From Oscillospiraceae bacterium (GTDB lineage: Bacteria > Bacillota > Clostridia > Oscillospirales > Ruminococcaceae): DNA of 64,000 nucleotides. Within the stretch, counting starts at the first letter, position 1. Every line of letters starts with the position of its first letter. Below are positions 3,132 to 42,482 of the stretch, piece after piece. A program made the position numbers and the translations under genes. The DNA lies in assembly GCA_051881775.1 (NCBI GenBank), contig JBJEQN010000103.1:14604-78603 (forward strand), in the 5' to 3' direction. The notes under the pieces are model-generated. The model searched no databases, was not told the DNA's origin, and saw only the letters and a program-made list of their open reading frames with translations.

Positions 3132-4484
3132 ATGCTGCACAGAAAGATTGAACGTGAAATTGTTGACTGGCTGAACAAGGATAGTAAGGCGCTGCTTATT
3201 GACGGTGCAAGACAGGTCGGTAAGACATATATTATAAGAAGTACGCTTGCGCAGCAAGGCTGTGACTATGCTGAATTTAATCTGCTGCACACACCGGAGC
3301 TTGTGACCTTGCTTGAAAAATGCAGCAGTGTGGAAGATATGATAACGAGCCTGTCCTTGTTTGCCGATAAGCCGTTTGTAAGGGGCAGGACAGTTTTGTT
3401 CTTTGACGAGATACAGGAGTTTAAGGAGCTTGCTACAAAAATCAAGTTTTGGGTAGACGAGGGTTCGTTCCGCTATGTGTTCAGCGGTTCACTGCTCGGC
3501 GTGGAACTGAGGAGCATAAAATCTGCACCTGTCGGTTATTTGAAAACCTTGACAATGTATCCTATGGACTTTGAGGAATTTTTGCAGATATATAATTTTA
3601 CCGACAAACTCAGAGAATCGCTGTACAATTCCTTTGTTGACAGAACACCTGTAAATGAAGCTGTGCATGAGCGAATGATGCGTATTTTTAATATGTATCT
3701 GCTTGTAGGCGGTATGCCTGCAGCTGTTGAACGGTTCCGAGAAACTCATAATTTAGAAGATGTGCTATCTGAACACAATGATATAGTTACACAGTATAAA
3801 AGGGACTTTACGCATTATGAGCAGGACGCTAAAAAAATCTATCTGACACAGATATATGACCTTATTCCTGCTGAATTGAATAAGCCAAATAAACGTTTTA
3901 ATTTTTCTGATCTGAAACAGGGAATGCGTTATGAACGCAGCGAGGAAAATTTTTTATGGCTGGCTCAGGCAGGCGTGGCATTGCCTGTGTATAATGTGTC
4001 AGCGCCTGAGATACCGTTGATGCTTAACGAAAAAAGCAGCTTGTTCAAGCTGTTTATGTCCGATGTAGGAATGTTGACCTCAGTTTACGGCAGAGCGGCA
4101 AAAATGGAGATATTGTCCGGCAGCGGCAATACAAATAACGGTGCTGTCTATGAAAATGTTGTTGCACAGGAATTGAAGGCTCACGGCTTCAAGCTGTATT
4201 ATTATAACAGCAAGAAGTTCGGCGAACTGGATCTTGTTGTGGAGTATAACGGTAAAGTTCTGCCTATAGAGGTAAAGAGCGGAAAAGATTACCGCCGTCA
4301 TTCCGCATTAAGCAATGTGATGTATGAGAGCGATTACCGTATAGACGAAGCCTTTGTATTGTCGGATTATAATGTAGATGTTCAGGGCAAACTGGTATAT
4401 TATCCTGTTTATATGCTTATGTTTATAAATAACGATGAATTAAGGTTCCCTCAGATAGAAATTGACGATCTTTCTGATATTTGA
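3132..4484 (+). CDS. AAA+ ATPase with C-terminal DUF4143 domain
   Basis: Walker A (GARQVGKT), Walker B (LFFDEIQ) and a DUF4143-like C-terminal half. ATG 3132 has GGGAGG 8 nt upstream; the track ORF starts at 3090. Confidence 0.8.
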   Translation: MLHRKIEREIVDWLNKDSKALLIDGARQVGKTYIIRSTLAQQGCDYAEFNLLHTPELVTLLEKCSSVEDMITSLSLFADKPFVRGRTVLFFDEIQEFKELATKIKFWVDEGSFRYVFSGSLLGVELRSIKSAPVGYLKTLTMYPMDFEEFLQIYNFTDKLRESLYNSFVDRTPVNEAVHERMMRIFNMYLLVGGMPAAVERFRETHNLEDVLSEHNDIVTQYKRDFTHYEQDAKKIYLTQIYDLIPAELNKPNKRFNFSDLKQGMRYERSEENFLWLAQAGVALPVYNVSAPEIPLMLNEKSSLFKLFMSDVGMLTSVYGRAAKMEILSGSGNTNNGAVYENVVAQELKAHGFKLYYYNSKKFGELDLVVEYNGKVLPIEVKSGKDYRRHSALSNVMYESDYRIDEAFVLSDYNVDVQGKLVYYPVYMLMFINNDELRFPQIEIDDLSDI

Positions 4485-4968: not shown

Positions 4969-7279
4969 ATTCGTTCTGAAATTTAAGAAACGTTCCGTCG
5001 CTTATGGTATCGGGAAAATTGGGCAGGGGAGAGCTTTCTTTGCTGCGGAAAATAAGCGTGTCACCGGCAATTTCAAAGACAAACCGTTCACCCGTTCCGC
5101 AGGAAATAACGAGCCTGTCACCCTCCACAGAGCATACTCCGCTTATAATTCGGCTTGAAAGACCCGAATCGGTGAAATACGCTCCGCCGTAAACCGTAAT
5201 GTTTACCGAATTAAGCGCACCGTTTTCTGCGGAATAAACACCGGGCTTCACCATGCTTTGTGCATAAGGACTTATAGCAGGGCTGTTTCCCGGGAACGGC
5301 ACAAAGGCTTCTTCTCCCGAATCGGTATGGCGCACTATCTCAATAAGCGCAAGGTGAGAGCCGCTGTAGCCGTCAAGCGTTCGTGGACGCAGATAAACAT
5401 ATTCCGTGTCGCTGTAATAGTAAGCCTCCCCCAAAAAGCTGCCTGCACCGCTGCTCCATACACGCCTTGTATCAAATGACGGGGAGAAGTCCTCCGCATA
5501 TATCAGCTTGCAGCCGAAGGTGTCAAGCCAGTAGTAAGCGGTCTCCTCACCGTTGCCGATGTAACAGTAAAGCCTGCGCACTCCGTCAATGCTTTCCGAG
5601 CCCATTCCTACGCCGTTCCAACTGTCTGCACCCGGTTCAAAGGGGAGAAGCTGCTTTATCTGTTCAAAGCTTGCCGTAATATCCGCCGTAAATTCCGTTT
5701 GGTCGGTGCAGACGAAAAGATAGTCCGAACCCTCTGTGAAAACGGTGTAAATTTCATCGGCGTAAATAATATAGGGAAATTCCGAGCCGAAATAAACGCT
5801 GTTCATTTTCGCTGTGGAAACGGGTACAACGGGAATTTCCGAGGGAAAGATACGGGAAACGCCGCCCGAAGATGTAAATTCATCAATAACGGCAACAACA
5901 GCGCCGTCCTCGTCAATAACATTGTAATCATCAAGGCAGGAATAAATATCATCGTAAATTTCCCGTGATATTTCGTAGCTGTAGCCGTATTTCGGCAATG
6001 AAACGCCGTATATGATCCTGCCGTCCGTATTTACTGCGGTAAAAAGCTGAAATTCTGCGGAAAGAGGCTCGTCTGCACTGTAATACACTGTAAAATCCCG
6101 CACAGACGTTGGCTTGATCTCATAGTCGGGGTCAACGGGGCTTAGCTCCGAGTTACGCATAAGATAAAGCAGCTTTGACATACTTCCGCTTTTCAGTTCG
6201 TATTCCTCACCCGTCTGACCGTTTGCTTCTTTTGATACGGTCACACTTGGCGACTCGCCGTATAAAACTTCGCTTAAAACAATGTCCATTGAAGTCTGAG
6301 TTTCATAGTCAGGCTTGCCAAAATAGCTTTCAAAATTGTTATTTCCGCTTCTGCCGTTAAAAATAAGAATTACCGATGCCGCAAGAATTATCACCGCAAA
6401 AATGCTTACCCAAAGAGCAGGTCTTTTGAAGCCGAGAACGTTCTTAATGCGCCTTTTTGTACCGTTTTCCGAGAAGCAGGCAGTAAAGGGAGCAGTGTTT
6501 CCTGCGGCAATGTCAAGAAGCGCCTGTGAGTAGTCCGCCTTGCCCGTGTCATCCATATTTTTTGCAACAGCTTCATCGCAGGACATTTCCATATCACGTT
6601 CGCACAGCTTAAACGCAAGCCATACAAGAGGATTGAACCAGTGAATACACAAAGCGGCGAACATTACTATCTTGGCAACGTGGTCAAACCGCTTTATGTG
6701 CGCCTTTTCGTGAAGAATTATCAGGCTGCGCTGCGACTGTGCAAGGTTTTCGGGAAGATATATCTTCGGCTTGAACACGCCCATTATAAACGGGTTTGAG
6801 ATGCCGCCGCAGACGTAAATATTCCCCTCGGTGCAGACAGCGTTTCTAAGCCGTTTTTTCAGCTTTATGTAAGAAATAACGCCGTAAGCCGCCATTAACG
6901 TTACCCCCATAAGCCATATGACCGTTCCTGCGGAGATTATACGGCGTGTGCCTTTGTATTCTTCCGGAGCATTTTTGTCGGTGCTTGTAAAAATCGTAAC
7001 GGAAGCGTTGCTGCCTACGAAAAACAGGTCGCCGTAATCCCGGGGCGTTTGCACGGTATCGGCATTTATGCTGTATTCCTCTATCTTTACGGGAACAACG
7101 GGGGCAGAGGGCAGGGTAAATTCAAATGGGCAAAGCAGCCTTATAAACACAACAGCCCACATTGCATAGGAAAAGACCTTCGGCGCTTTTCGCAGCAGCA
7201 GCCTTAACACAAGCACGGCTGCAATAACAAAGGAAGCTGTAATGCTCATTCCTGCTATTTTCAGAAAAATATCCGTCAT
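4967..7279 (-). CDS. M56 family (BlaR1/MecR1-like) membrane metalloprotease with a large C-terminal extracellular domain that is not PBP-like
   Basis: HEKAHIKRFDH zinc motif within a multi-TM N-terminal region. About 470 C-terminal residues lack SxxK/KTG motifs. The likely start is MTDIFLKIAG at 7279 (TAATG overlap with the upstream gene); the track start at 7330 is an in-frame extension. Confidence 0.85.
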   Translation of the reverse strand: MTDIFLKIAGMSITASFVIAAVLVLRLLLRKAPKVFSYAMWAVVFIRLLCPFEFTLPSAPVVPVKIEEYSINADTVQTPRDYGDLFFVGSNASVTIFTSTDKNAPEEYKGTRRIISAGTVIWLMGVTLMAAYGVISYIKLKKRLRNAVCTEGNIYVCGGISNPFIMGVFKPKIYLPENLAQSQRSLIILHEKAHIKRFDHVAKIVMFAALCIHWFNPLVWLAFKLCERDMEMSCDEAVAKNMDDTGKADYSQALLDIAAGNTAPFTACFSENGTKRRIKNVLGFKRPALWVSIFAVIILAASVILIFNGRSGNNNFESYFGKPDYETQTSMDIVLSEVLYGESPSVTVSKEANGQTGEEYELKSGSMSKLLYLMRNSELSPVDPDYEIKPTSVRDFTVYYSADEPLSAEFQLFTAVNTDGRIIYGVSLPKYGYSYEISREIYDDIYSCLDDYNVIDEDGAVVAVIDEFTSSGGVSRIFPSEIPVVPVSTAKMNSVYFGSEFPYIIYADEIYTVFTEGSDYLFVCTDQTEFTADITASFEQIKQLLPFEPGADSWNGVGMGSESIDGVRRLYCYIGNGEETAYYWLDTFGCKLIYAEDFSPSFDTRRVWSSGAGSFLGEAYYYSDTEYVYLRPRTLDGYSGSHLALIEIVRHTDSGEEAFVPFPGNSPAISPYAQSMVKPGVYSAENGALNSVNITVYGGAYFTDSGLSSRIISGVCSVEGDRLVISCGTGERFVFEIAGDTLIFRSKESSPLPNFPDTISDGTFLKFQNE

Positions 7280-8565
7280 TAGAGAAGCACCTCCGCACTG
7301 TCCTTTATCTTTGTATAGTTGTTTTCGCAAAGCTCGTATAGGTAGCAGCCTTTTTCTATGTTGCTATGTTCGGCGTTGACAATGACAGTTACATAATAAC
7401 GTTTGTGAACGCCGTAAGTGCCGCTTGAAAGTATAATGCTGTCCGTCTTGTCGCCCATATGACAATCCAGCCTCATTTCCTCGGCGGTTTCGGGTGCGCT
7501 GTCCTGTTCGCAGAGTGCGCCGCTTGCTCTTACAAGGTTGTATTTGACAAGATGAAGCTCACCCTCCATACCCGTGCGGCTTTCCATAGCATTGGAGCCG
7601 TATTCGGCTGTTTTTTTGCCTGCGGTAAGTGTGAAACCGTCATATTTTTCGGGGCGAAGCAGTATTTTTTCGGCAGACATTATATAGTTATATCCCCACA
7701 TAACGTAATTGATGTTTTTTCCCGTGTAGTCGATACGATAGAGATGATCGCCATTATTTGCCGCAACAGATACGCAGCTTATATAACGGTTATCGGCTGT
7801 TCTTGCGGTAACGTTGGTAAGCTTCTTTACTCCCGTTTCGGTGTAAAAGTAAAGCTCCTTTCCCTCATATAAGGTCAGCTTTGTTTTATCGAGGGGAGTA
7901 TATTTTATATTACGCAGCCATTCCATAAGCTCCGCACGGTCGTCCTCGGTAAAAATTGCATAGGTGTCATAGGTTTTGCCTCGGCTCACTGCTTCGACCT
8001 TGAAATACTCGCCGCCTGTCAAGTCGTCAATAACGGAGGTGTCATATTCCGCAGCATCGTCTTCATAGTCAAACAAAGCGTCTATATCCTCAAAAAGCTG
8101 TCCGCATTGTTTTTCGTCAAGTACAAAAATTCCCGAATTAAGGAGCTTGATATGCACATAGGTCAGCACACAGGCGTTTTCACCATTTGCATCCTTTCCC
8201 CTTGAAAGTGTGATCTCAAAAAAATCAAAATAAATTTTAGCGGTGCGCTCCGTACTGGTAAGCGGAGATTCCTTGACTTCTTTCAGGTCAAGAGCGTAAA
8301 AATCCCTTGCAAACTGTCCTATCTCTCCGCCGAGAGTGATAATGTCGGAGGAAGTACCGTTTCCGTAACTCACAGTTTCGCCGTCCATTTCAAAGGTCAC
8401 GCTGTAATCTATTTTGTCAAAGCCGATCCTGTCCTTTACCGAATTTTCCTTGGAAATTATCATTGATATAAGCAGAAAAACGGTAAAAAGCAGGACAAAG
8501 ATTCCGCCGAAAAGAGCGTATTTTCTGAACGGAACGGTTTTTGCAGCAATGTCGGTGTATTTCAT
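7279..8565 (-). CDS. hypothetical membrane-anchored protein (one N-terminal TM helix, about 390-aa extracytoplasmic part)
   Basis: Long ORF translationally coupled on both sides (ATGA overlap with blaI-like at 8562-8565, TAATG with the M56 gene). I recognise no family. Confidence 0.6.
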   Translation of the reverse strand: MKYTDIAAKTVPFRKYALFGGIFVLLFTVFLLISMIISKENSVKDRIGFDKIDYSVTFEMDGETVSYGNGTSSDIITLGGEIGQFARDFYALDLKEVKESPLTSTERTAKIYFDFFEITLSRGKDANGENACVLTYVHIKLLNSGIFVLDEKQCGQLFEDIDALFDYEDDAAEYDTSVIDDLTGGEYFKVEAVSRGKTYDTYAIFTEDDRAELMEWLRNIKYTPLDKTKLTLYEGKELYFYTETGVKKLTNVTARTADNRYISCVSVAANNGDHLYRIDYTGKNINYVMWGYNYIMSAEKILLRPEKYDGFTLTAGKKTAEYGSNAMESRTGMEGELHLVKYNLVRASGALCEQDSAPETAEEMRLDCHMGDKTDSIILSSGTYGVHKRYYVTVIVNAEHSNIEKGCYLYELCENNYTKIKDSAEVLL

Positions 8566-8930
8566 TTCAGTTCCTTTCGGTAATCGTCTATCATCTTCTG
8601 TATTTCGTCAAGCTCTGCGCCGCTGAGTTTTTTTCTGTCTGCAAATGCTGCTAAAAATTTAGGCAGAGAGCCACCGTAGCTTTCATTTACAAGCTGTTCA
8701 CCCTTTTCTGCGGCAAGCTCTTCCTCGGTCATTTTCACACGGACAACTCCGCCGTCGTTAACGAATATTCCCTTGTCGCAAAGCCTTCGCAGCATGGTGT
8801 AGGTAGTGGATTTTTTCCAGTTAAGCTCCCTTTCGCACAGCTTTACAAGCTCACCCGAGGGGATATTTTCATTTTCCCATATGAGCCGTGCAAAGCGGTT
8901 TTCCATTTCTCCAAGCTTAATTTCAGCCAT
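8562..8930 (-). CDS. BlaI/MecI/CopY family transcriptional repressor
   Basis: Winged-helix N-terminus (IWENENIPSGELVKL...WKKSTTYTMLRRLCDKG) and a helical C-terminal dimerisation part; 122 aa. Confidence 0.9.
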   Translation of the reverse strand: MAEIKLGEMENRFARLIWENENIPSGELVKLCERELNWKKSTTYTMLRRLCDKGIFVNDGGVVRVKMTEEELAAEKGEQLVNESYGGSLPKFLAAFADRKKLSGAELDEIQKMIDDYRKELK

Positions 8931-9224: not shown

Positions 9225-9252
9225 TTCACTCTCCACTCTTCACACTCCAAAC
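9225..9252. repeat. single heptad-periodic array (CU-rich on the + strand) just upstream of the thyA SD
   Basis: TTCACTC TCCACTC TTCACAC TCCAAAC. Its reverse complement matches the GGAGAGT/GAAGAGT arrays at 29.8, 30.5, 39.8 and 42.0 kb. Confidence 0.7.
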
Positions 9253-9276
9253 TTAATTCACGGAGGTTTATTTTAA

Positions 9277-29764: not shown

Positions 29765-29772
29765 TTTGAACA

Positions 29773-29836
29773 AGTTTGAAGTGTGGAGAGTGAAGAGTGG
29801 AGTTAAACTTTGATTTTATACTCTCCAAATTTAAAA
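29773..29836. repeat. heptad-periodic array, truncated copy
   Basis: Positions 29773-29805 (AGTTTGAAGTGTGGAGAGTGAAGAGTGGAGTTA) are identical to 30472-30504. The tail TTTGAT..CTCTCC..AAATT matches the 30541-30581 tail, with internal deletions. Confidence 0.75.
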
Positions 29837-29848
29837 GACAATTTAGTG

Positions 29849-29959
29849 AAGGTTTCTATAAATAAAGAATTGTCTGATTGATTAAGCTAACGAAAAAAAT
29901 CACTTTTGATACTTTTAGGGTGTCAAAAGTGATTTTTGTTTTTGTCGGAAGTTGACTTG
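29849..29959 (+). repeat. 111-bp direct repeat copy 1, containing a terminator hairpin (29898-29934 plus T-run) and a TTGACT -35 box
   Basis: Hand alignment to 30354-30463 shows 3 substitutions and one 1-nt indel. The hairpin is AATCACTTTTGA...TCAAAAGTGATT. Confidence 0.85.
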
Positions 29960-29981
29960 TTAGGCGGCGGTGTGATATAAT
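29952..29981 (+). promoter_or_regulatory. candidate promoter of the 93-codon ORF
   Basis: TTGACT (29952-29957), 18-nt spacer, TGaTATAAT extended -10 (29973-29981). Confidence 0.45.
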
Positions 29982-30028
29982 TAAACTATAATAAATAGGG
30001 ATTTTTGTACTTTAAGTTGGTGATTTAA

Positions 30029-30310
30029 ATGGAAAACAATGGAATGGACTTTAGAGAAACTTTACTAAATCAAATAAAAGAATATCTTGATGGTAAAATA
30101 ACAAAAGAAGAATATTATGCAATGGCTGAACCTTTTTATACCCAATACGCTCATAATTGCAATAACACATTGTTCCTTGAATATTTTTTAGCTACAATAC
30201 CAGATGCTTGTTTATTTTATATTGACGAACCCAACTTCACATCTGAAAGTAATGATGAAATGTTTTACAAAACGTTAAGTGAAGCATATATAAATTTACA
30301 GAAACTTTAA
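30029..30310 (+). CDS. hypothetical 93-aa protein; AT-rich orphan, possibly a small helical immunity-type protein
   Basis: ORF with its own promoter-like sequence and a downstream terminator. G+C is visibly far below the flanks. No secure family assignment. Confidence 0.5.
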   Translation: MENNGMDFRETLLNQIKEYLDGKITKEEYYAMAEPFYTQYAHNCNNTLFLEYFLATIPDACLFYIDEPNFTSESNDEMFYKTLSEAYINLQKL

Positions 30311-30353
30311 AGATATTTTTGAGTTGATTTGATACACATATTCCAATTTGGCA

Positions 30354-30463
30354 AAGGTTTCTATGAATAAAGAATTGGCTGATTGATTAAGCTAACGAAA
30401 AAATCACTTTTGATACTTTTAGGGTGTCAAAAGTGATTTTTATTTTTGTCGGAAGTTGACTTG
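30354..30463 (+). repeat. direct repeat copy 2, with terminator hairpin 30402-30438 plus T-run
   Basis: See copy 1. Confidence 0.85.
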
Positions 30464-30471
30464 CTGTAATG

Positions 30472-30581
30472 AGTTTGAAGTGTGGAGAGTGAAGAGTGGA
30501 GTTATAATTTTAACTTCACTCCCAACTCTTCACACTTCACTCTTTGATAATTCCACTCTCCACTTTCCACTTTCCAAATTC
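30472..30581. repeat. heptad-periodic inverted-repeat element, full copy
   Basis: Purine arm TGAAGTG TGGAGAG TGAAGAG TGGAGTT (30476-30503), inverted arm TAACTTC ACTCCCA ACTCTTC ACACTTC (30511-30538), then TTCCACT CTCCACT TTCCACT TTCCAAA (30551-30578). Confidence 0.8.
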
Positions 30582-30588
30582 AAAAAAC

Positions 30589-35764: not shown

Positions 35765-35768
35765 GTTT

Positions 35769-35814
35769 AATGCGGAATTAGGAATTCGGAATGCGGAATT
35801 AATGGCGGATTCCG
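35769..35814. repeat. heptad array, GGAATKC dialect, left arm
   Basis: ATGCGGA ATTAGGA ATTCGGA ATGCGGA ATTAATG. Positions 35783-35799 are the perfect reverse complement of 35933-35949. Confidence 0.8.
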
Positions 35815-35827
35815 TACATATGAAATA

Positions 35828-35869
35828 AAAAACAACGTTTTTGTGGAAAAGCACAAAAACGTTGTTTTT
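35828..35869. terminator. bidirectional terminator shared by nadA (+) and fucI (-)
   Basis: 18-bp perfect stem AAAAACAACGTTTTTGTG / CACAAAAACGTTGTTTTT with a 6-nt loop. Confidence 0.85.
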
Positions 35870-35917
35870 GCTTGTGTAGGAAACTACATTATTGACGCAA
35901 ATTTTCGGATAATAAAT

Positions 35918-35949
35918 AATTCCGCATTCCGCATTCCGCATTCCGAATT
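35918..35949. repeat. heptad array, right (inverted) arm, overlapping the fucI stop codon
   Basis: (ATTCCGC)x3 ATTCCGA ATT. Confidence 0.8.
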
Positions 35950-37720
35950 ATTTATAAAGTGCTCCGTAGCATTCGCAAGCCTTGTAATCGGCGTCTTCAA
36001 GATTGCCTGTGCCGAAAGCAGACCATGCGTGAGGACGGTAAATGTCCTCGTCGGGTACGTTGTGCATTGCAACGGGAATTCTAAGCATTGAAGCAAGGGT
36101 GATAAGATCCTTGCCGATGTGACCGTATGCAAATGCGCCGTGGTTTGCGCCCCAGTTTGCCATTACGGAATAAACGTCCTTGAACGCCGTCTTTTCGGGC
36201 ATAAGGTTGGGAACGAACCAGGTTGTTGGCCAGGTCTTGTCCGTGCGGTCGTCAAGGGGCTTGTGTATTTCTTCGGGAAGAACGACGGTGTAGCCCTCCG
36301 CAAGCTGAAGAACAGGACCTATGCCGTCAATAACGTTGACTCTAATCATTGTAACGGGCATTTCAGCCTGTGTGCGGAAGTGTGAGGAGAATCCGCCGCC
36401 TCTGAAGTATCCGAGATTTGCAGGACACCAGTCAACCTTGCCGAGAACAGCGTCAATGTCCTTGTCGGTCATATCCCACCACTTTTTCATAAGGTGATTG
36501 CCGTTTTCATCCTGCGCCATACCTGTTCCGTCAAGAGCGGCAGCGCCGGAGTTGATAAGGTGAATGAAGCCGTTTGCAGCCTTGCCCGTAGGCTTGATTC
36601 CCGTTACACGTTCAACAGCTTCGGGGCTCCAGTATGTACGAACGTCTGCAAAAACGGAGGCTGTGCCGGTAACAAGTGTTCCCAGAAGCATTGCTGTGCC
36701 GTTAAGACCGTCATTTTCTGTTGCAAAGGTAAGAGGCTGCTTCTTGCCGTTCCAGTCAAAGGTGGTGTTAAGGATAGACTCGCAGAAATCGGCGTTGGGG
36801 AGCCAGTCTGTCCACTGGCGCTGACCCTGGAAACCGCCCATAACAGCGTTTCTGCCGTTTGCTTCTTCCTTCCAGCCCATTTCACGGAGCTTTTCGTTGC
36901 CAAGCATAATATCACGGACGATAAGGGTCATCTTAACGGTGAATTCCCACTGCTCCTCGTGGGACATTACCTTCTTGTTGCCGGGATTTATCTCTGTGTT
37001 GATGTCCATACCCTCGGGACAATGAGCCTTTGTCCACGCAAGAGCCTTTTCATATTCCTCGTGGTCGTAAATTTCAAGGTGGATTCGGCGGAGAATTTCC
37101 GTCATATCTACCCATTCGGGGCGCAGACCGAGATAATCCTGCATAAACATTGCGTCGCAGTAAGAGCCTGCAATACCCATAGCAACACCGCCGATGTTAA
37201 CGTAAGCCTTGGTTTTCATCCAGCCAACGGCAACTGCACAGCGTGCAAAGCGGAGTATTTTCTCCGAAACGTCCTCGGGGATAGAGGTGTCGTCAGCGTC
37301 CTGAACATCGTGACCGTAGATAGAGAACGCAGGCAGACCTCTCTGAGCGTGAGCGGACATTGCAGCGGCAAGATAAACTGCGCCGGGGCGTTCTGTGCCG
37401 TTAAAGCCCCATACAGCCTTGATAGTTGTAGGGTTAAGGTCGATAGTTTCCGTAACGTAGCACCAGCAGGGGGTAACGGAAAGTGTTGCGCAGATGTTCT
37501 GTGTCGAGAAAAATTCCTCAGCCTTTGCAGCCTCTGCGCCGCCGCCTATTGTAAACGGCGTGATAACGCATTCTACAGGCGTTCCATCGGGATAGCGGCA
37601 GTTTTCTTCGATAAGCTTCTTTGCGGAATTTGCCATGTTCATCGTCTGAACTTCAAGGGATTCTCTTACTCCGAACTGACGTCCGTCAATAATTGGTCTG
37701 ATTCCTATTCTTGGGTACAT
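35948..37720 (-). CDS. fucI: L-fucose isomerase
   Basis: 590-aa protein, colinear with FucI (MYPRIGIRPIIDGR... N-terminus). Confidence 0.95.
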   Translation of the reverse strand: MYPRIGIRPIIDGRQFGVRESLEVQTMNMANSAKKLIEENCRYPDGTPVECVITPFTIGGGAEAAKAEEFFSTQNICATLSVTPCWCYVTETIDLNPTTIKAVWGFNGTERPGAVYLAAAMSAHAQRGLPAFSIYGHDVQDADDTSIPEDVSEKILRFARCAVAVGWMKTKAYVNIGGVAMGIAGSYCDAMFMQDYLGLRPEWVDMTEILRRIHLEIYDHEEYEKALAWTKAHCPEGMDINTEINPGNKKVMSHEEQWEFTVKMTLIVRDIMLGNEKLREMGWKEEANGRNAVMGGFQGQRQWTDWLPNADFCESILNTTFDWNGKKQPLTFATENDGLNGTAMLLGTLVTGTASVFADVRTYWSPEAVERVTGIKPTGKAANGFIHLINSGAAALDGTGMAQDENGNHLMKKWWDMTDKDIDAVLGKVDWCPANLGYFRGGGFSSHFRTQAEMPVTMIRVNVIDGIGPVLQLAEGYTVVLPEEIHKPLDDRTDKTWPTTWFVPNLMPEKTAFKDVYSVMANWGANHGAFAYGHIGKDLITLASMLRIPVAMHNVPDEDIYRPHAWSAFGTGNLEDADYKACECYGALYK

Positions 37721-37742
37721 AATTCATTCTCCTTTTTAGTTT

Positions 37743-37845
37743 AAAGTGAAAAGTTGAAAGTTGAAAGTGGAATTTGCGGAAGTTTGAAATGTTAAGAGTG
37801 TATTTTTTCAATAATTCCGAATTCCGCATTCCTAATTCCTAATTA
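37743..37845. repeat. heptad-periodic element between fucK and fucI (GAAAGTT and GGAATTC dialects)
   Basis: AAGTGAA AAGTTGA AAGTTGA AAGTGGA ... then ATTCCGA ATTCCGC ATTCCTA ATTCCTA. The last units overlap the final fucK codons and stop codon. GGAATTTGCGGAA (37769-37781) can pair with TTCCGCATTCC (37822-37832). Confidence 0.8.
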
Positions 37846-39301
37846 TTTCAAGATACCTTTTGTACGCAGATTCCCATTCATCCGTATTTTCGGGGGAGTA
37901 GAGCTTTACATTGTCCGATCCTGCAATAATCTGCCTTGCTGTCTTGATGTCGGGAATAGCGCCAACGGCAATAAGCTGCATTGCAATGTTTCCGTAAGCG
38001 GTAGCCTCGATAGGACCTGCCACAACGTCACAATTGCAGGCAGCGGCGGTCATTCGGCAAAGCATACCGTCCTTCGTTCCACCCCCCACAAGATGAATTT
38101 TTCTGTATTCCTTGCCCGTGCATTCCCTTATCTCGTCAAAGGTAAGACGGTATTTAAGCGCAAGGCTCTCGTAAATGCACCGCATAACTTCGCCCACACT
38201 TTCGGGAACGGGCTGATTCGTCCTGCGGCAGTATTCACGCACTCTTTCGGGGATATTTCCCACGGGTACAAACTCGGGTGCGTCGGGGTCGATAAAGCAC
38301 TTGAAGGGTTCACACTCCAGCGCCATTTTTTCAAGGTCGGCAAAGGAATATTCCTTGCCCTCACGCCTGAACTGACGGCGTGATTCCTGAATAAGCCATA
38401 AGCCTATAATGTTCTTTAAGAAGGTGGTTTTTCCGCCGTAACCCGTTTCGTTGGTGATGTTCAGCGCCGCAGATTTTTCGTTTATAACAGGTTCGTCCGT
38501 TTCCGTGCCGAAAAGCGACCAGGTTCCGCAGGAAATGAAGATGAAATCCTCTTCCTCCGTGGGAGCAGCTGCTGCGGCACATTGCGTGTCGTGTCCGCAG
38601 ACGGAAATTACCTTTGCAGAGGGAATGTCAAGCTCCCTGCAAATTTCCTCGGAAAGCTCTCCAAGCTCCGTTGCAGGCATACATATCTCAGGCAGTATAT
38701 TTTTCGGGATACCAAGCGCATCAAGCACCGTTTCCGACCAACTGCGGTTTACAGCGTTCATCATCTGGGTCGTGGAAGCAATGGAAAGCTCCGCACGCTT
38801 TTTTCCCGTCAGCAGATAGCCGAATAAATCGGGCATAAGCAGCAAGGTTTCCGCATTTTTCAGCATATCTGGGCGCTGCAGTTTAAGGGAAAGAAGCTGA
38901 AAAGCCGTGTTTATCTCCATAAACTGGTTGCCCGTTATCTTGTAGAACTGCTCCTTGTCAATAAGCTCAAAAGCCTTGTCGAGCATACCCGAAGTGCGGC
39001 TGTCACGGTAGTTTACGGGCAGCTCCAGAAGGTGACCGTCCTTGCCGATAAGTCCGAAATCAACGCCCCAGGTATCCACAGCAAGACTGTCAAATCCGCC
39101 GCTTTGCGCAGCCTTTACAAGCCCCTGCTTGATCTCGTGAAAAAGACGGGGCAGATCCCAGTAAAGGGTGCCGCACATCTGAACGGGAGTGTTTTCAAAG
39201 CGGTGTACTTCTTCCAGCTTAATGGTCTCACCGTCGAAAATGCCGATAATTGCTCGTCCGCTTGAAGCACCGAAATCGAAAGCCAAAACTCGTTTTTCCA
39301 T
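37832..39301 (-). CDS. fucK: FGGY-family sugar kinase (rhamnulokinase-like); L-fuculokinase by operon context
   Basis: FDFGASSGR N-terminal ATPase motif and a two-domain FGGY layout, lying between fucU and fucI. Confidence 0.75.
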   Translation of the reverse strand: MEKRVLAFDFGASSGRAIIGIFDGETIKLEEVHRFENTPVQMCGTLYWDLPRLFHEIKQGLVKAAQSGGFDSLAVDTWGVDFGLIGKDGHLLELPVNYRDSRTSGMLDKAFELIDKEQFYKITGNQFMEINTAFQLLSLKLQRPDMLKNAETLLLMPDLFGYLLTGKKRAELSIASTTQMMNAVNRSWSETVLDALGIPKNILPEICMPATELGELSEEICRELDIPSAKVISVCGHDTQCAAAAAPTEEEDFIFISCGTWSLFGTETDEPVINEKSAALNITNETGYGGKTTFLKNIIGLWLIQESRRQFRREGKEYSFADLEKMALECEPFKCFIDPDAPEFVPVGNIPERVREYCRRTNQPVPESVGEVMRCIYESLALKYRLTFDEIRECTGKEYRKIHLVGGGTKDGMLCRMTAAACNCDVVAGPIEATAYGNIAMQLIAVGAIPDIKTARQIIAGSDNVKLYSPENTDEWESAYKRYLEIIRN

Positions 39302-39313
39302 ATCAGCTCACCG

Positions 39314-39742
39314 TTACTTTACAACGCCTTTTTTAAGGATAATGTTTGCGTAAATTGCCTCTTCGCCCGTTGCAACAACAGCGTAAGCGGTCTTTGCACG
39401 TTCGTAAAAAGCAAAGCGTTCTATCATTTCTATCTTGCAGTTTTCCGGCTCGTATTTGTTTATAACAGCCTTGTAATCGTCCCATATCGTGGGAACAACA
39501 GGGTCGCCGGGAACTACCTCCATAAGCATAACAGGCTTTTCAGTGTATGTATCAAGAGGGAAAAGCTGCATAATTGCGTCAAGAAGCTCCGTTACACCGT
39601 GACCGTCGCAGCGGATAACACGCTTGCCAATAGTTTCGGCAGGAAAGTTGCCGTCTGCGATAACGATTTCATCTCCGTGTCCCATTTCCATAAGGGTCTT
39701 GACAAGCTCAGGGGAGAGGAGCTTTGGGATGTTTTTTAACAT
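39314..39742 (-). CDS. fucU: L-fucose mutarotase (RbsD/FucU family)
   Basis: MLKNIPKLLSPELVKTLMEMGHGDEIVIADGNFP is a canonical FucU N-terminus; 142 aa. Confidence 0.85.
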   Translation of the reverse strand: MLKNIPKLLSPELVKTLMEMGHGDEIVIADGNFPAETIGKRVIRCDGHGVTELLDAIMQLFPLDTYTEKPVMLMEVVPGDPVVPTIWDDYKAVINKYEPENCKIEMIERFAFYERAKTAYAVVATGEEAIYANIILKKGVVK

Positions 39743-39756
39743 ATTATATGACCTCC

Positions 39757-39905
39757 AATTTAAAGTGTGGAGTGTGAAGAGTGTAGAGTGGAGTTTTTCA
39801 ATTTGGAAAGTTGAAAGTTGAAAGTAGAATTTTTTTGATCAATAAATCTCCGTCTTTGAAGCAGAAATTATAACTTCACACTTCACTCTTCACACTTCAA
39901 ACTCT
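39757..39905. repeat. heptad-periodic inverted-repeat element between the nitroreductase gene and fucU
   Basis: AAAGTGT GGAGTGT GAAGAGT GTAGAGT GGAGTTT (39762-39796), GGAAAGT TGAAAGT TGAAAGT (39805-39825), and the inverted arm TAACTTC ACACTTC ACTCTTC ACACTTC (39871-39898). The perfect 12-bp core is 39772-39783 / 39884-39895. Confidence 0.85.
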
Positions 39906-39908
39906 GAT

Positions 39909-40427
39909 TTAGTCGTAAATAACAAATCCGTCTTTTCTTGCGGCAGGCTGTTGGTGAACGGTGTCTGCATAGCCGAGAATACAGTTTCCGATGCCAACAT
40001 ATTTTTCGTCAAGACCCCATTTTTTCATAAGAGCCTTGCCTTCTTCTGTCTGGAATGTTTCTCTTGCTCTGTGTATCCAGCAGGAATCCACGCCCAGTGA
40101 AAACGCTGCATTCATAAGATTTCCCATAACAAGACTTCCGTCCTCAATATAAGTATTTACAGTGCTGTCAGCAAAAACTATAACTAACACAGGAGCGCCG
40201 TAAAATGGGTCGTTTACGCCGTCCATTATCCTTGCATTTATCTGCGACAGCATATTTATGGTTTCCGTGTCCCTAACAACCACCATAACGGAGGACTGCT
40301 TGCCTCTTCCGTTGGGCGCATATTCTCCTGCGTTAAGTATTTCGTTAAGAACATCGTCGGGAACGGGTGTGTCTTTGTAGGAACGCACACTTCTGCGTGA
40401 TACAAGGTTTTTTATAGTTTCGTTCAT
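39909..40427 (-). CDS. nitroreductase family protein
   Basis: RRSVRSY near the N-terminus and NAD(P)H-flavin nitroreductase-fold length. ATG at 40427; the track TTG start is at 40451. Confidence 0.85.
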   Translation of the reverse strand: MNETIKNLVSRRSVRSYKDTPVPDDVLNEILNAGEYAPNGRGKQSSVMVVVRDTETINMLSQINARIMDGVNDPFYGAPVLVIVFADSTVNTYIEDGSLVMGNLMNAAFSLGVDSCWIHRARETFQTEEGKALMKKWGLDEKYVGIGNCILGYADTVHQQPAARKDGFVIYD

Positions 40428-40453
40428 ATTAATAAAATCTCCTGTCGTCAAAA

Positions 40454-40753
40454 TTACTGCCTTTCTTTAAGACTAAGCTCCGAAATAGCTATGTCTACGC
40501 CGTTTTTGTCCGCAAATTTAACGGCTCCCGAGATCAAACGGTCCTTGTTCTTTTCAAACACGGACAGGACAAATTTATCCTGTTCCTCCTGCGGTATGAA
40601 ACGCAGGAAATTTTCAAGCACACCCGGCGATTCGGCAGCGTTAAGAACTGCAGGCGGCAGGGAAATATCGGACTTATCTGCGTAGGGCAGCAAGGCTCTT
40701 ATGGCCTGAGCGTAATTTATTTCATCTATATCGACGGTCAATCTGAATTTCAT
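40454..40753 (-). CDS. hypothetical 99-aa protein
   Basis: ORF starting MKFRLTVDIDE at 40753. The track extension to 40801 runs through an intercistronic hairpin. No family recognised. Confidence 0.45.
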   Translation of the reverse strand: MKFRLTVDIDEINYAQAIRALLPYADKSDISLPPAVLNAAESPGVLENFLRFIPQEEQDKFVLSVFEKNKDRLISGAVKFADKNGVDIAISELSLKERQ

Positions 40754-40781
40754 AAATACATCTTTCTTGTTATAAACAATG

Positions 40782-40816
40782 CGCAATCCGAACGCAGGCA
40801 AAACGCTCGGATTGCG
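40782..40816 (-). other. intercistronic hairpin between fucO and the 99-aa ORF
   Basis: 13-bp stem CGCAATCCGAACG / CGCTCGGATTGCG (one mismatch) with no U-tract. Confidence 0.6.
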
Positions 40817-40840
40817 GTTTGATTTTAATTTACTGTTGGA

Positions 40841-41989
40841 TCAAAGGAGAGACTGGTAAAGCTCCTTGATCTCTGCAACGGAAGTGTCTCTGGGATTTCC
40901 GGGACGGCAAGCGTCATCGTAAGCGGACTGTGAAAGGAAGTCAAGATCTTCAGGCTTAACAATGTCCTTAAGGTCTGCAGGGATTCCTACATCCTGTGAA
41001 AGCTGCTTAACAGCGTCAATTGCAGCCTTTCTGTATTCTTCCTGTGTCATATCGTCAACACCCTTAACGCCCATTGCTCTTGCGATCTCACGGTACTTTT
41101 CACCTGTTGCCGGAGCGTTGTACTCCATAACTGTAGGAAGGATAATAGCATTTGCAACGCCGTGAGGTGTGTCATACAGAGCGCCGAGAGGGTGAGCCAT
41201 TGAGTGAACGATGCCAAGACCAACGTTGGAGAAGCCCATACCTGCAACATACTGACCGAGAGCCATATCTGTTCTGCCTTCCTTGGTGTTTTCAACTGCA
41301 CCTCTAAGGCTTCTGGCAATTATCTCGATAGCCTTAAGATGGAACATATCGGAAAGCTCCCAAGCGCCCTTTGTTATGTAGCCTTCGATAGCGTGGGTAA
41401 GAGCGTCCATACCTGTTGCAGCGGTCAGACCCTTGGGCATAGAGGACATCATGTCGGGGTCAACGAAAGCAACAACGGGAATGTCGTGGGGGTCAACGCA
41501 AACCATTTTACGGTTCTTTTCTGCGTCGGTAATAACGTAGTTGATAGTAACTTCTGCTGCTGTACCTGCTGTTGTGGGAACGGCAAGAATGGGAACGCTC
41601 TTGTTCTTTGTATCTGCAACGCCTTCAAGGCTTCTTACATCAGCAAATTCGGGGTTAGCAATGATAATGCCGATAGCCTTTGCAGTATCCATAGAAGAAC
41701 CGCCGCCGATAGCGATAAGATAATCAGCTTCCGCAGCCTTGAAAGCAGCAACGCCGGACTGTACGTTTTCAATTGTAGGGTTAGGCTTGATCTCGGAATA
41801 AAGAGTATAAGCAAGACCTGCGCCGTCCAGAACGTCTGTTACCTTCTTTGTTACGCCGAACTTGATAAGGTCGGGGTCGGAGCATACAAGAGCCTTTTTG
41901 AAGCCTCTGTTCTTAGCTTCATCTGCAATAGCTGCAATAGCGCCTGCACCGTGATAAGATGTTTCGTTGAGGATAAATCTGTTTGCCAT
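40841..41989 (-). CDS. fucO: lactaldehyde reductase (iron-containing alcohol dehydrogenase)
   Basis: 382 aa with GGGSSMDTAK and His metal ligands. The N-terminus MANRFILNETSYHGAGAI is typical of FucO. Confidence 0.9.
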   Translation of the reverse strand: MANRFILNETSYHGAGAIAAIADEAKNRGFKKALVCSDPDLIKFGVTKKVTDVLDGAGLAYTLYSEIKPNPTIENVQSGVAAFKAAEADYLIAIGGGSSMDTAKAIGIIIANPEFADVRSLEGVADTKNKSVPILAVPTTAGTAAEVTINYVITDAEKNRKMVCVDPHDIPVVAFVDPDMMSSMPKGLTAATGMDALTHAIEGYITKGAWELSDMFHLKAIEIIARSLRGAVENTKEGRTDMALGQYVAGMGFSNVGLGIVHSMAHPLGALYDTPHGVANAIILPTVMEYNAPATGEKYREIARAMGVKGVDDMTQEEYRKAAIDAVKQLSQDVGIPADLKDIVKPEDLDFLSQSAYDDACRPGNPRDTSVAEIKELYQSLL

Positions 41990-42012
41990 AGTAAAAACAC
42001 TCCTTTATTTTA

Positions 42013-42069
42013 GTTTGGAGAGTGAAGAGTTAAGAGTGAAGTTTTTAACACTCTGCTTTTCACTTTTCC
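42013..42069. repeat. heptad array forming the fucO-proximal arm around the four-helix-bundle gene
   Basis: TTTGGAG AGTGAAG AGTTAAG AGTGAAG TTTTT, then AACACTCTGCTTTTCACTTTTCC. Confidence 0.85.
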
Positions 42070-42440
42070 TAAATATTTTTGATGTTATTTGCAGATTTCA
42101 GCGTTCTTGTTGAAGCTGATAACATTCGTCGTATTTCTTCACAGTCTGAATAAATACTGCAATATAATTGTTCACTTAGATAGCCTGTTTCATATAAAAG
42201 TTCAAGCCAATATTTTGTTTCGTTGCATTCTTTAAGTGCGATATAAAGTTTAAAGGTAAAGTCTTTTTTACTGATTGAACATTCTGCTTCTGCTAAATTT
42301 GCACCTATACTTGTTCCACTTCGTAAAACTTGTTTTGATAAAACGTATTCATTTTTTTCAGAACAAAGATATTTGTACATATTAATGATACGAATTGCAA
42401 ATTTTTTACTTTTATATTTTGCTGAATTATCATCTATCAA
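42069..42440 (-). CDS. four-helix-bundle protein (TIGR02436 / 23S rRNA intervening-sequence protein family)
   Basis: LSKQVLRSGTSIGANLAEAECSISKKDFTFKLYIALKECNETKYWLELL is the family signature. TTG start with GGAG 7 nt upstream. About one-third G+C, against about one-half in the flanking genes. Confidence 0.85.
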   Translation of the reverse strand: MIDDNSAKYKSKKFAIRIINMYKYLCSEKNEYVLSKQVLRSGTSIGANLAEAECSISKKDFTFKLYIALKECNETKYWLELLYETGYLSEQLYCSIYSDCEEIRRMLSASTRTLKSANNIKNI

Positions 42441-42443
42441 TTT

Positions 42444-42480
42444 AAAACTCCACTCTTCACTCTTAACACTTCACACTTTT
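42444..42480. repeat. heptad array forming the fucA-proximal (inverted) arm
   Basis: AAAACTC CACTCTT CACTCTT AACACTT CACACTT. Positions 42455-42467 are the perfect reverse complement of 42029-42041. Confidence 0.85.
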
Positions 42481-42482
42481 GA

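Follow-up and report, generated by a model that had tools for sequence, protein, structure and literature searches.

Inverted heptanucleotide arrays in an Oscillospiraceae fucose operon and their association with four-helix-bundle gene cassettes

The closest described relative of the elements considered here is the intervening sequence (IVS) of the Coxiella burnetii 23S rRNA gene, which encodes S23p, a member of the PF05635 family whose proteins crystallise as homopentamers (Warrier et al. 2016, PMC4990558). This IVS forms a 28-bp terminal stem that is cut by RNase III, as established by in vitro assay and RACE (rapid cDNA-end amplification), and carries 2-3 tandem GACAGAT heptamers upstream of its open reading frame (ORF); strains differ by one heptamer, and the IVS is regarded as a selfish element (PMC4990558). 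Here we describe a 64,000-nucleotide (nt) stretch of the genome of an Oscillospiraceae bacterium (GenBank assembly GCA_051881775.1, contig JBJEQN010000103.1, positions 14,604 to 78,603), hereafter the window, in which a fucose operon is studded with inverted arrays of 7-nt units, one pair of which encloses a gene for a four-helix-bundle (4HB) protein of the same family.

Tandem heptamers have also been described outside rRNA. Rehm et al. 2015 (PMC4692102) count ~186 GGGAATC sites in Xanthomonas, 70-75 of them as convergent (inverted) pairs, interpret them as G-quadruplex formers and call the excess of heptameric simple sequence repeats (SSRs) in bacteria unexplained. MacGregor 2015 (PMC4679880) reports intergenic TAACTGA repeats of unknown function in Beggiatoaceae, Cyanobacteria and Bacteroidetes and reads them as protein-binding sites, and Vioque 1997 is cited for short tandemly repeated repetitive (STRR) heptamers inside cyanobacterial RNase P RNA genes. 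The initial annotation of the window, made by inspection of the letters, did not recognise its repeat family. That judgement is partly overtaken by the heptamers of the Coxiella IVS stem, Xanthomonas, the TAACTGA arrays and the STRRs; it stands to the extent that our literature search found no paper tying these together and none that links PF05635 genes in general, beyond the Coxiella IVS alone, to inverted heptamer arrays, an absence that is no proof of novelty.

Period-7 arrays and a complete cassette between fucA and fucO

Tandem Repeats Finder and a lag-7 self-match scan place period-7 arrays at every site named in the initial annotation and recover its three dialects, GRAGWGT, GAAAGTT and GGAATKM (Table 1). 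At a strict threshold the lag-7 scan finds 9 arrays in the window versus 0.15 in shuffles, and the same scan of the window shows no comparable excess at other periods from 4 to 12. Perfect inverted cores of 17, 12 and 13 bp are exactly as first reported, the extended arms are 72-92% complementary, and array lengths are mostly 32-38 nt. The period itself was described as strict, which overstates it, since neighbouring units match at 79-95% by Tandem Repeats Finder. The arrays are also largely non-coding, as had been proposed, except where one runs into the 3′ end of fucK. Contiguous 7-mer units without spacers rule out a clustered regularly interspaced short palindromic repeat (CRISPR) array of 25-40 nt direct repeats with unique spacers, as the annotation had noted. 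Rfam returns no family at gathering score in the window, and a permissive search gave just sub-threshold hairpin look-alikes from miRNA precursor models, which were taken as noise.

With at least three tandem 7-nt copies above chance, an intergenic position and convergent (inverted) pairing, the arrays are heptanucleotide SSRs. Like STRR, GGGAATC and TAACTGA arrays, they consist of few to tens of tandem 7-nt units in intergenic DNA, often beside start or stop codons, with several dialects per genome. Unlike these, they use units (GRAGWGT, GAAAGTT and GGAATKM) that match no described one (TAACTGA, GGGAATC, GGGGAYT); the earlier papers draw no link to PF05635, and none reports such arrays from Clostridia.

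Pfam and NCBIfam searches give the region the order nadA on the plus strand and then, on the minus strand, fucI, an FGGY kinase gene (fucK), fucU, a nitroreductase gene, a 115-aa ORF without assignment, an Fe-alcohol dehydrogenase gene (fucO), a 123-aa ORF, a class II aldolase gene (fucA) and a transporter gene. The initial annotation left the arrays unlinked to the ORF that they enclose. This 123-aa ORF encodes a 4HB protein of a family that is typically array-flanked: it matches PF05635 with an E-value of 5.7e-30 (104 bits against a cut-off of 33.8), TIGR02436 with 4.9e-32 and PDB entry 2RLD, which has five chains, with 5.9e-35. The protein has no match in libraries of defence-system and phage proteins, and Pfam and NCBIfam detect no transposase domain in its gene, the sole gene associated with the arrays. 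The 4HB family, originally discovered in 23S rRNA IVSs, is under purifying selection (dN/dS 0.03-0.14).

The 4HB ORF is AT-rich, lies in the loop between the arms and is co-directional with fucA and fucO, such that the complete cassette runs from the fucA stop codon through a purine-rich arm, the 4HB ORF and a pyrimidine-rich arm to the Shine-Dalgarno (SD) sequence of fucO. Its arms are 23-32 nt long and 72-91% complementary, and in the minimum-free-energy structure they pair with each other around the ORF (z -2.7). GGAG, the inner end of the 5′ arm, is situated ~8 nt ahead of the 4HB start codon and likely supplies its SD.

In having a PF05635/TIGR02436 protein and terminal inverted repeats that enclose its ORF, the cassette resembles S23p-type IVSs. 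As in the IVSs of Coxiella and Leptospira, the ORF occupies the loop of a long terminal-inverted-repeat stem and would be a sense-strand part of the host transcript; as in Coxiella, the 5′ part of the stem, immediately ahead of the ORF, is made up in part of tandem heptamers of variable copy number and has a purine-rich SD. The window cassette differs in location, between two protein genes of a sugar operon rather than in helix 25 or 45 of 23S rRNA, and Rfam detects no rRNA in the window that could hold a 23S insertion. RNase III cleavage has been demonstrated for the Coxiella IVS and is predicted by analogy for the window cassette. The Coxiella ORF is decaying, in contrast to the purifying selection on the window 4HB family, and the gene-less arrays at neighbouring junctions of the window have no counterpart in the Coxiella IVS.

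Heptamer arms at four-helix-bundle genes in other genomes

A metagenome scan for relatives of the window 4HB protein yielded 80 loci, in which arrays were counted within 200 nt of the gene by the period-7 scan. Of the 80 genes, 67 have an array upstream, 61 have one downstream and 51 have both; dereplication leaves 75 distinct genes, 51 of them two-sided. Complementary units, that is, reverse complements within one mismatch, occur in 46 of the 51 two-sided loci, as compared with a mean of 5.3 and a maximum of 12 over 1000 permutations of partners. These 46 loci use 31 different heptamers, and the matching of arms across so many units means that the arms covary. Comparison of the loci thus indicates that complementarity is preserved between the two arms of one element even as the units change in sequence from one element lineage to another.

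Two further collections give the same picture. On viral contigs an array lies upstream of 11 of 17 4HB genes and downstream of 10, and all 8 two-sided loci are complementary. All 8 annotated plasmid-borne 4HB genes of cultured organisms have inverted heptamer arms, and several of them sit within restriction-modification, DISARM or BREX operons; this set comprises Nostoc (two), Euhalothece, Planktothrix, Bernardetia, Treponema, Chlorohelix and Monoglobus, that is, cyanobacteria, spirochaetes, Bacteroidota, Chloroflexota and Clostridia. The arms of the Nostoc and Planktothrix genes are cyanobacterial heptanucleotide arrays of the STRR kind. The generality of the association therefore rests on three independent collections (metagenomes, viral contigs and plasmids). 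As a control, we used homologues of a 93-aa ORF that is enclosed by another array group of the window; none of the 30 is flanked by heptamer arrays, which makes the association specific to 4HB genes in this comparison.

Each dialect of the window is found as arms of 4HB genes elsewhere: GGAATKM (GGAATTC/GGAATGC) in loci L156, L162, L175, L179 and L196, GAAAGTT in L202, L203 and the viral contig L330, and GRAGWGT in L124, L135 and L204. Unit similarity tracks 4HB protein identity, with ~60% of pairs within one mismatch at 75% identity or more versus 7% below 60%. Median arm length is 34-35 nt, or ~4.9 units (interquartile range 28-40; 4HB loci L124-L203). Between near-identical 4HB loci the sole indels are of 7, 7 and 21 nt, all inside arms, and alignment thus indicates that arms gain and lose whole 7-nt units by slippage. 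The flanks of 4HB loci hold ~0.27 arrays/kb against 0.014/kb in control loci from related gut Clostridia, and 30 of the 61 further arrays that lie no more than 2.5 kb from a 4HB gene share its dialect, where permuted loci give 4.3.

The elements also have a consistent orientation. The purine-rich arm comes first in 32 4HB loci and second in 2, the upstream neighbour is co-directional with the 4HB gene in 54 of 62, and in 39 of 50 a same-strand stop codon upstream lies between -25 and +10 nt from the start of the 5′ arm. The fucK stop inside 37811-37848 is a further instance of such close contact with a stop codon.

Some layouts are more elaborate. In the viral loci L322 and L330 the 3′ heptamer arm is present in four to five copies at ~45-60 nt spacing downstream of the 4HB gene, an arrangement that resembles a repeat-spacer layout. 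An A-gene-A-A′ architecture occurs in L172, L198, L322, L323 and at 29772-30545 of the window.

Gene-less arrays and the fucose operons of relatives

Within the window, arrays occur at 4 of ~9 operon junctions versus 2 of ~46 elsewhere (Fisher p ~0.005, from rough junction counts). The short fucK/fucU, nitroreductase/115-aa ORF and 115-aa ORF/fucO junctions lack them, as originally observed. Folding against shuffled controls, which the initial annotation had proposed as a check, favors pairing at three junctions, namely nadA/fucI, where the genes are convergent and the arms are 34 nt long and 88% complementary with the 17-bp perfect core (z -8.6), nitroreductase/fucU, where the arms fold into a long stem (z -3.9), and the complete cassette; the check fails at fucK/fucI (z -1.75).

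Table 1 Positions of arrays, arms and accompanying features in the window
Feature	Unit	Position	Strand	Remarks
Arrays by Tandem Repeats Finder and lag-7 scan	GGAATKM	35769-35801; inverted at 35916-35951, 37811-37848
Arrays by Tandem Repeats Finder and lag-7 scan	GAAAGTT	37742-37776, 39800-39832
Arrays by Tandem Repeats Finder and lag-7 scan	GRAGWGT	39763-39794, 42015-42042; inverted at 39871-39904, 42447-42479
4HB gene, 123 aa		42069-42440	-	PF05635 23S_rRNA_IVP and TIGR02436
Complete cassette, 5′ arm (4HB sense strand)	GRAGWGT	42441-42482		begins 1-3 nt past fucA stop codon
Complete cassette, 3′ arm		42012-42046		CU-rich on mRNA; ends ~8 nt ahead of fucO SD
Nitroreductase/fucU hairpin, 5′ arm on mRNA	GRAGWGT	39871-39910		adjoins nitroreductase stop codon; 39 nt, 79% complementary
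Nitroreductase/fucU hairpin, partner arm		39757-39795		CU-rich on mRNA; ends 6-7 nt ahead of fucU SD
Solo array	GAAAGTT	39800-39832		within loop of nitroreductase/fucU hairpin
fucK/fucI junction array	GGAATKM	37811-37848		purine-rich on mRNA; holds fucK stop codon TAG (37832-37834) and last four codons
fucK/fucI junction array	GAAAGTT	37742-37776		CU-rich on mRNA; ~9 nt ahead of fucI SD
nadA/fucI hairpin arm	GGAATKM	35916-35951		overlaps fucI stop codon (35948-35950)
nadA/fucI partner arm		35769-35801		starts 4 nt past nadA stop codon
Perfect 18-bp hairpin		35828-35869		A/T run on each side; terminator-like in either direction; in nadA/fucI loop
Solo array outside fuc operon	GRAGWGT	9225-9255		CU-rich; ~10 nt upstream of thyA SD
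Array group, spacer of diaminopimelate (DAP) dehydrogenase gene and purB	GRAGWGT	29772-30585		encloses 93-aa ORF

To place the arrays in an evolutionary frame, the operon was compared with those of relatives whose FucI proteins are 81-92% identical to that of the window, with arrays detected at our own threshold. Inspection of the Huintestinicola relative (L123) reveals no 4HB gene and no heptamer periodicity at any fuc junction; its fucA/fucO spacer (L123 6222-6269) has 46 nt, reads ...AAAATATAACAAAGGAGTG and resembles an empty site. The filled site of the window (41990-42482) reads CCAAACT/AAAATAAAGGAGTG for comparison, and no target-site duplication is definable between the filled and empty junctions compared. 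In L122 arrays are confined to the 4HB gene at fucA/fucO, and the closest relative by FucI (L121, 92%) has no 4HB gene and degenerate TCTAnnn arrays alone. The closest homologues of the window 4HB protein (76-78% identity) occupy the same fucA/fucO position in two further assemblies, with GRAGWGT-type arms that differ in length and unit mix from those of the window. Orthologous fucA/4HB/fucO cassettes are present in L122, L349/350 and L351, and the spacing from CU-rich arm to SD is conserved in L349 and L122. These comparisons indicate that the complete fucA/fucO cassette is old and vertically inherited within an Oscillospiraceae clade, and that the gene-less arrays at the other fuc junctions are additions specific to the lineage of the window.

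The arrays had been described as a property of the fucose operon. That view does not survive the comparison, as relatives lack arrays at corresponding junctions and GRAGWGT arrays of the window also lie outside the operon, before thyA (9225-9249 by the scan) and in the DAP dehydrogenase/purB spacer. A conserved regulator of the fucose operon can likewise be ruled out, given the ordinary junctions of L123 and L122 and the degenerate arrays of L121.

Other inserts mark these operons as well. A 232-aa gene between fucK and fucI in L121 has direct copies of a TCTAnnn x5 array plus SD on both sides (3553-3604 and 4304-4375), and a gene for a PASTA-domain protein precedes fucU in L121 and L349. The window junctions 37721-37831 and 39743-39908 hold heptamer arrays alone, with no remnants of the 232-aa or PASTA genes.

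A scan of species-representative genomes for three GRAGWGT units returned at least 120 loci, and the matches listed include Planctomycetota, Acidobacteriota, Gemmatimonadota, Bacteroidota, Verrucomicrobiota, Campylobacterota, Chloroflexota and many Clostridia. Across the 866 kb of the 120 listed loci there are 301 arrays, several dialects occurring per locus. When the window is included, 61% of 310 arrays fall outside stop-to-stop ORFs, which span 89% of the sequence, and the flanking genes are convergent in 53 cases, same-direction in 90 and divergent in 13. Neighbouring arrays of the listed loci form 40 inverted pairs, mostly 12-130 nt apart, with a purine-first handedness of 31:3. Of 18 inverted pairs selected by pattern for loops of 300-700 nt, 4 enclose a 4HB gene by a narrow hidden Markov model, and the rest enclose assorted host or phage ORFs.

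Competing readings of the arrays

We read the arrays, with modest confidence, as the arms of heptamer-repeat stem-loop cassettes that accompany small, selfish-looking 4HB (S23p, Avd-like) genes in many bacterial phyla, together with gene-less derivatives, all riding on host transcripts. A cassette of this type would lack a promoter of its own and be transcribed with its host operon, and its arms would pair on the transcript into a stem of ~25-40 bp. Such a stem would mask the 4HB ribosome-binding site until melted by a ribosome that terminates at the stop codon next to it upstream. By analogy with the 23S IVSs of Coxiella and Leptospira, the stem may also be a substrate of RNase III, whose cut would free the host RNA of the insert with little burden. 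On this view the gene-less arrays would represent decayed copies, or ones that are not autonomous; they would be passengers of the operon and not fucose regulators. Of the roles offered in the initial annotation, RNase III sites and MITE-like insertions (miniature inverted-repeat transposable elements) come close to this reading, with RNase III cleavage extrapolated from Coxiella.

Several observations weigh against the passenger-cassette reading. The element of the window is located in an mRNA operon, not in rRNA. The fucK/fucI junction is a hybrid of two dialects that are unable to pair, and its fold is not above shuffles; solo arrays exist in the window as well. Between the nadA/fucI arms lies the terminator-like hairpin, such that terminated transcripts would hold one arm. 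No 4HB remnants are found in the loops of the gene-less hairpins, so that derivation by deletion is conjectural. Finally, stem mismatches on the sense strand include G.U (82) no more often than A.C (113), which is no RNA-level signature; in view of this missing G.U excess, complementarity may be maintained at the DNA level.

Repetitive extragenic palindromic (REP) sequences, their paired hairpin-forming derivatives (REPINs) with REP-associated tyrosine transposases (RAYTs), and MITEs are short inverted-repeat elements of intergenic spacers, especially at gene 3′ ends and inside operons. A serious rival, though one that we consider unlikely, is a DNA-level system analogous to REPIN/RAYT, in which the arrays would be termini or hairpins of DNA, and the 4HB protein would help to propagate, homogenise or recombine them. 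That protein would be an Avd-like pentamer that binds nucleic acids and may cooperate with an enzyme of the host or of a retroelement. A dialect of its own would be kept by each 4HB lineage, with the gene-less arrays as its non-autonomous population, and the arrays might also let operons gain and lose genes, as landing pads or sites of recombination.

The likeness to REPIN/RAYT lies in a small gene flanked by inverted repeat copies, with repeat and gene co-diverging by lineage. The tracking of protein identity by dialect, the density of arrays near 4HB genes and their sharing of the local dialect all fit a DNA-level process, as do the lack of G.U bias, the terminator that separates the nadA/fucI arms and the A-gene-A-A′ layouts. 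The same holds for the 232-aa gene of L121, which is flanked by direct array-plus-SD repeats where the window junction has arrays alone. Arms of ~4.9 units can further be set beside a homopentameric protein (PMC4990558; five chains in 2RLD); the agreement of about five units with a pentamer is either a binding register or coincidence. PF05635 resembles Avd, the accessory protein of diversity-generating retroelements (PMC10053308), a homologous pentameric four-helix-bundle fold (cd16375/PF05635-like) that acts on nucleic acids.

Against such a system, dialect sharing and co-drift are equally expected from co-inheritance and local duplication, and the fucA/fucO cassette is fixed in place across genomes with FucI ~80% identical, so that mobility must be infrequent. 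RAYT is a Y1 transposase with a known mechanism and REPs are unique palindromes, in contrast to a 120-aa four-helix bundle without known catalytic domain and to tandem heptamers; since the repeat-flanked gene of the window encodes a four-helix bundle and not a Y1 transposase, the elements of the window do not fall into the REPIN/RAYT class itself. Comparison with MITEs finds no definable target-site duplication and no transposase domain in the associated gene. Avd is encoded beside a reverse transcriptase with template and variable repeats, none of which is seen beside the window 4HB gene or in the sampled loci, and neither recombinase nor reverse transcriptase is seen adjoining the elements.

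A bolder version of the DNA-level account, which we hold to be doubtful, would unite PF05635 proteins with inverted heptamer arrays in a single widespread genetic system that maintains itself. Here the pentamer would recognise its own arms, in DNA or RNA form, across about five heptamer registers, and the 4HB protein would promote copying, homogenisation or spread of the arms, possibly with a reverse transcriptase as Avd does, while gene-less arrays of the same dialect would be seeded through intergenic spacers. If true, this system would explain the heptanucleotide excess in prokaryotes, the cyanobacterial STRRs and the 23S IVSs together.

A benefit to the host is a weaker rival than the DNA-level system, and we consider it improbable. 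The stems would lend stability to stretches of mRNA or define where it is processed, and translation of the next gene would be tuned by the CU-rich arrays, on which S1, cold-shock or CsrA-type proteins might assemble, a role of the kind proposed for TAACTGA. MacGregor 2015 (PMC4679880) indeed proposes translational regulation by heptamer repeats just upstream of start codons, and in the window the SDs of fucO, fucU, fucI and thyA are each preceded by a CU-rich array at a distance of 6-14 nt. Conserved spacing in the L349 and L122 cassettes and the avoidance of divergent (promoter) spacers among the listed loci and the window point in the same direction. However, close relatives have no gene-less arrays at the same junctions, arrays occur at unrelated genes in many phyla with highly diverse unit sequences, and one third of flanking-gene pairs converge and have no SD downstream. 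The initial annotation had stressed the order of purine arm, CU-rich arm and SD on the mRNA. The order is real, but it does not by itself argue for SD-directed function, because an inverted repeat reads purine-then-pyrimidine on both strands and the handedness is general (32:2 at 4HB loci, 31:3 at listed loci), such that the position of the CU-rich arm before an SD simply follows.

Neutral microsatellites, that is, slippage-born heptanucleotide repeats in AT-rich spacers unrelated to the ORF or to each other, are very improbable: unit-number polymorphism in steps of 7 and the general heptameric SSR excess in prokaryotes that PMC4692102 and PMC4679880 mention by citation would suit them, but slippage alone fails on the matched inverted pairing (46/51 versus 5.3), the handedness, the stop-codon abutment and the association with one protein family as against the array-free 93-aa ORF control, and pure slippage is excluded as a full explanation.

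With the cassette reading, a local repeat family becomes recognisable as a general unit, a 4HB gene in the loop of a stem with tandem-heptamer arms. The kind is already known from S23p/IVS-type stem-loop cassettes and intergenic heptamer arrays; new here is the mRNA-operon setting in an Oscillospiraceae genome, together with gene-less derivatives. Should the link hold genome-wide, it would join the rRNA IVSs, cyanobacterial STRRs and other intergenic heptamers and the over-representation of 7-nt SSRs, and the connection to 4HB cassettes may help to explain how frequent 7-base repeats are in bacterial genomes. The uncharacterised and very abundant TIGR02436 family gains a concrete candidate nucleic-acid partner. 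For annotation, the arrays would show where cassettes end and at which operon junctions genes are gained and lost; they would not be operon-specific regulators.

Further observations concern the surroundings of the arrays in the window. The DAP dehydrogenase/purB group has the layout A-[B-ORF-B]-A-A′, with arm A at 29773-29811, a direct copy at 30472-30510 and the inverted arm at 30506-30545, followed by a TTCCACT array at 30550-30585. A 121-nt block with a terminator-like hairpin (29839-29959) is directly repeated at 30344-30463 around the 93-aa ORF (30029-30310), which is conserved and AT-rich and has 30 homologues in contexts resembling prophages or integrative and conjugative elements. In the 115-aa ORF/fucO spacer, a non-heptameric 25-nt hairpin at 40770-40828 (80% complementary; 14 pairs, 8 of them G-C, with a weak T tail) may be an internal attenuator or processing site. 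Within the region 7279-8930, a 428-aa ORF is overlapped at its end by a gene for a BlaI/CopY-type repressor (8562-8930, minus strand); this gene lies upstream of the AT-rich spacer at whose end the solo array before thyA is found.

Elsewhere, 4HB genes are also found inside defence operons (L204-L213, L357, L358 and L359). Examples are the Mod/Res junction of type III restriction-modification systems, drmD/pglX of a DISARM/BREX locus in Planktothrix, DUF1156/Swt1-HEPN in Chlorohelix and hsdS/hsdR of a type I system in Monoglobus. Loci L209 and L206 carry a second 4HB copy between genes for an SNF2 helicase and a DUF4391 protein, where L211 has a 13-nt spacer.

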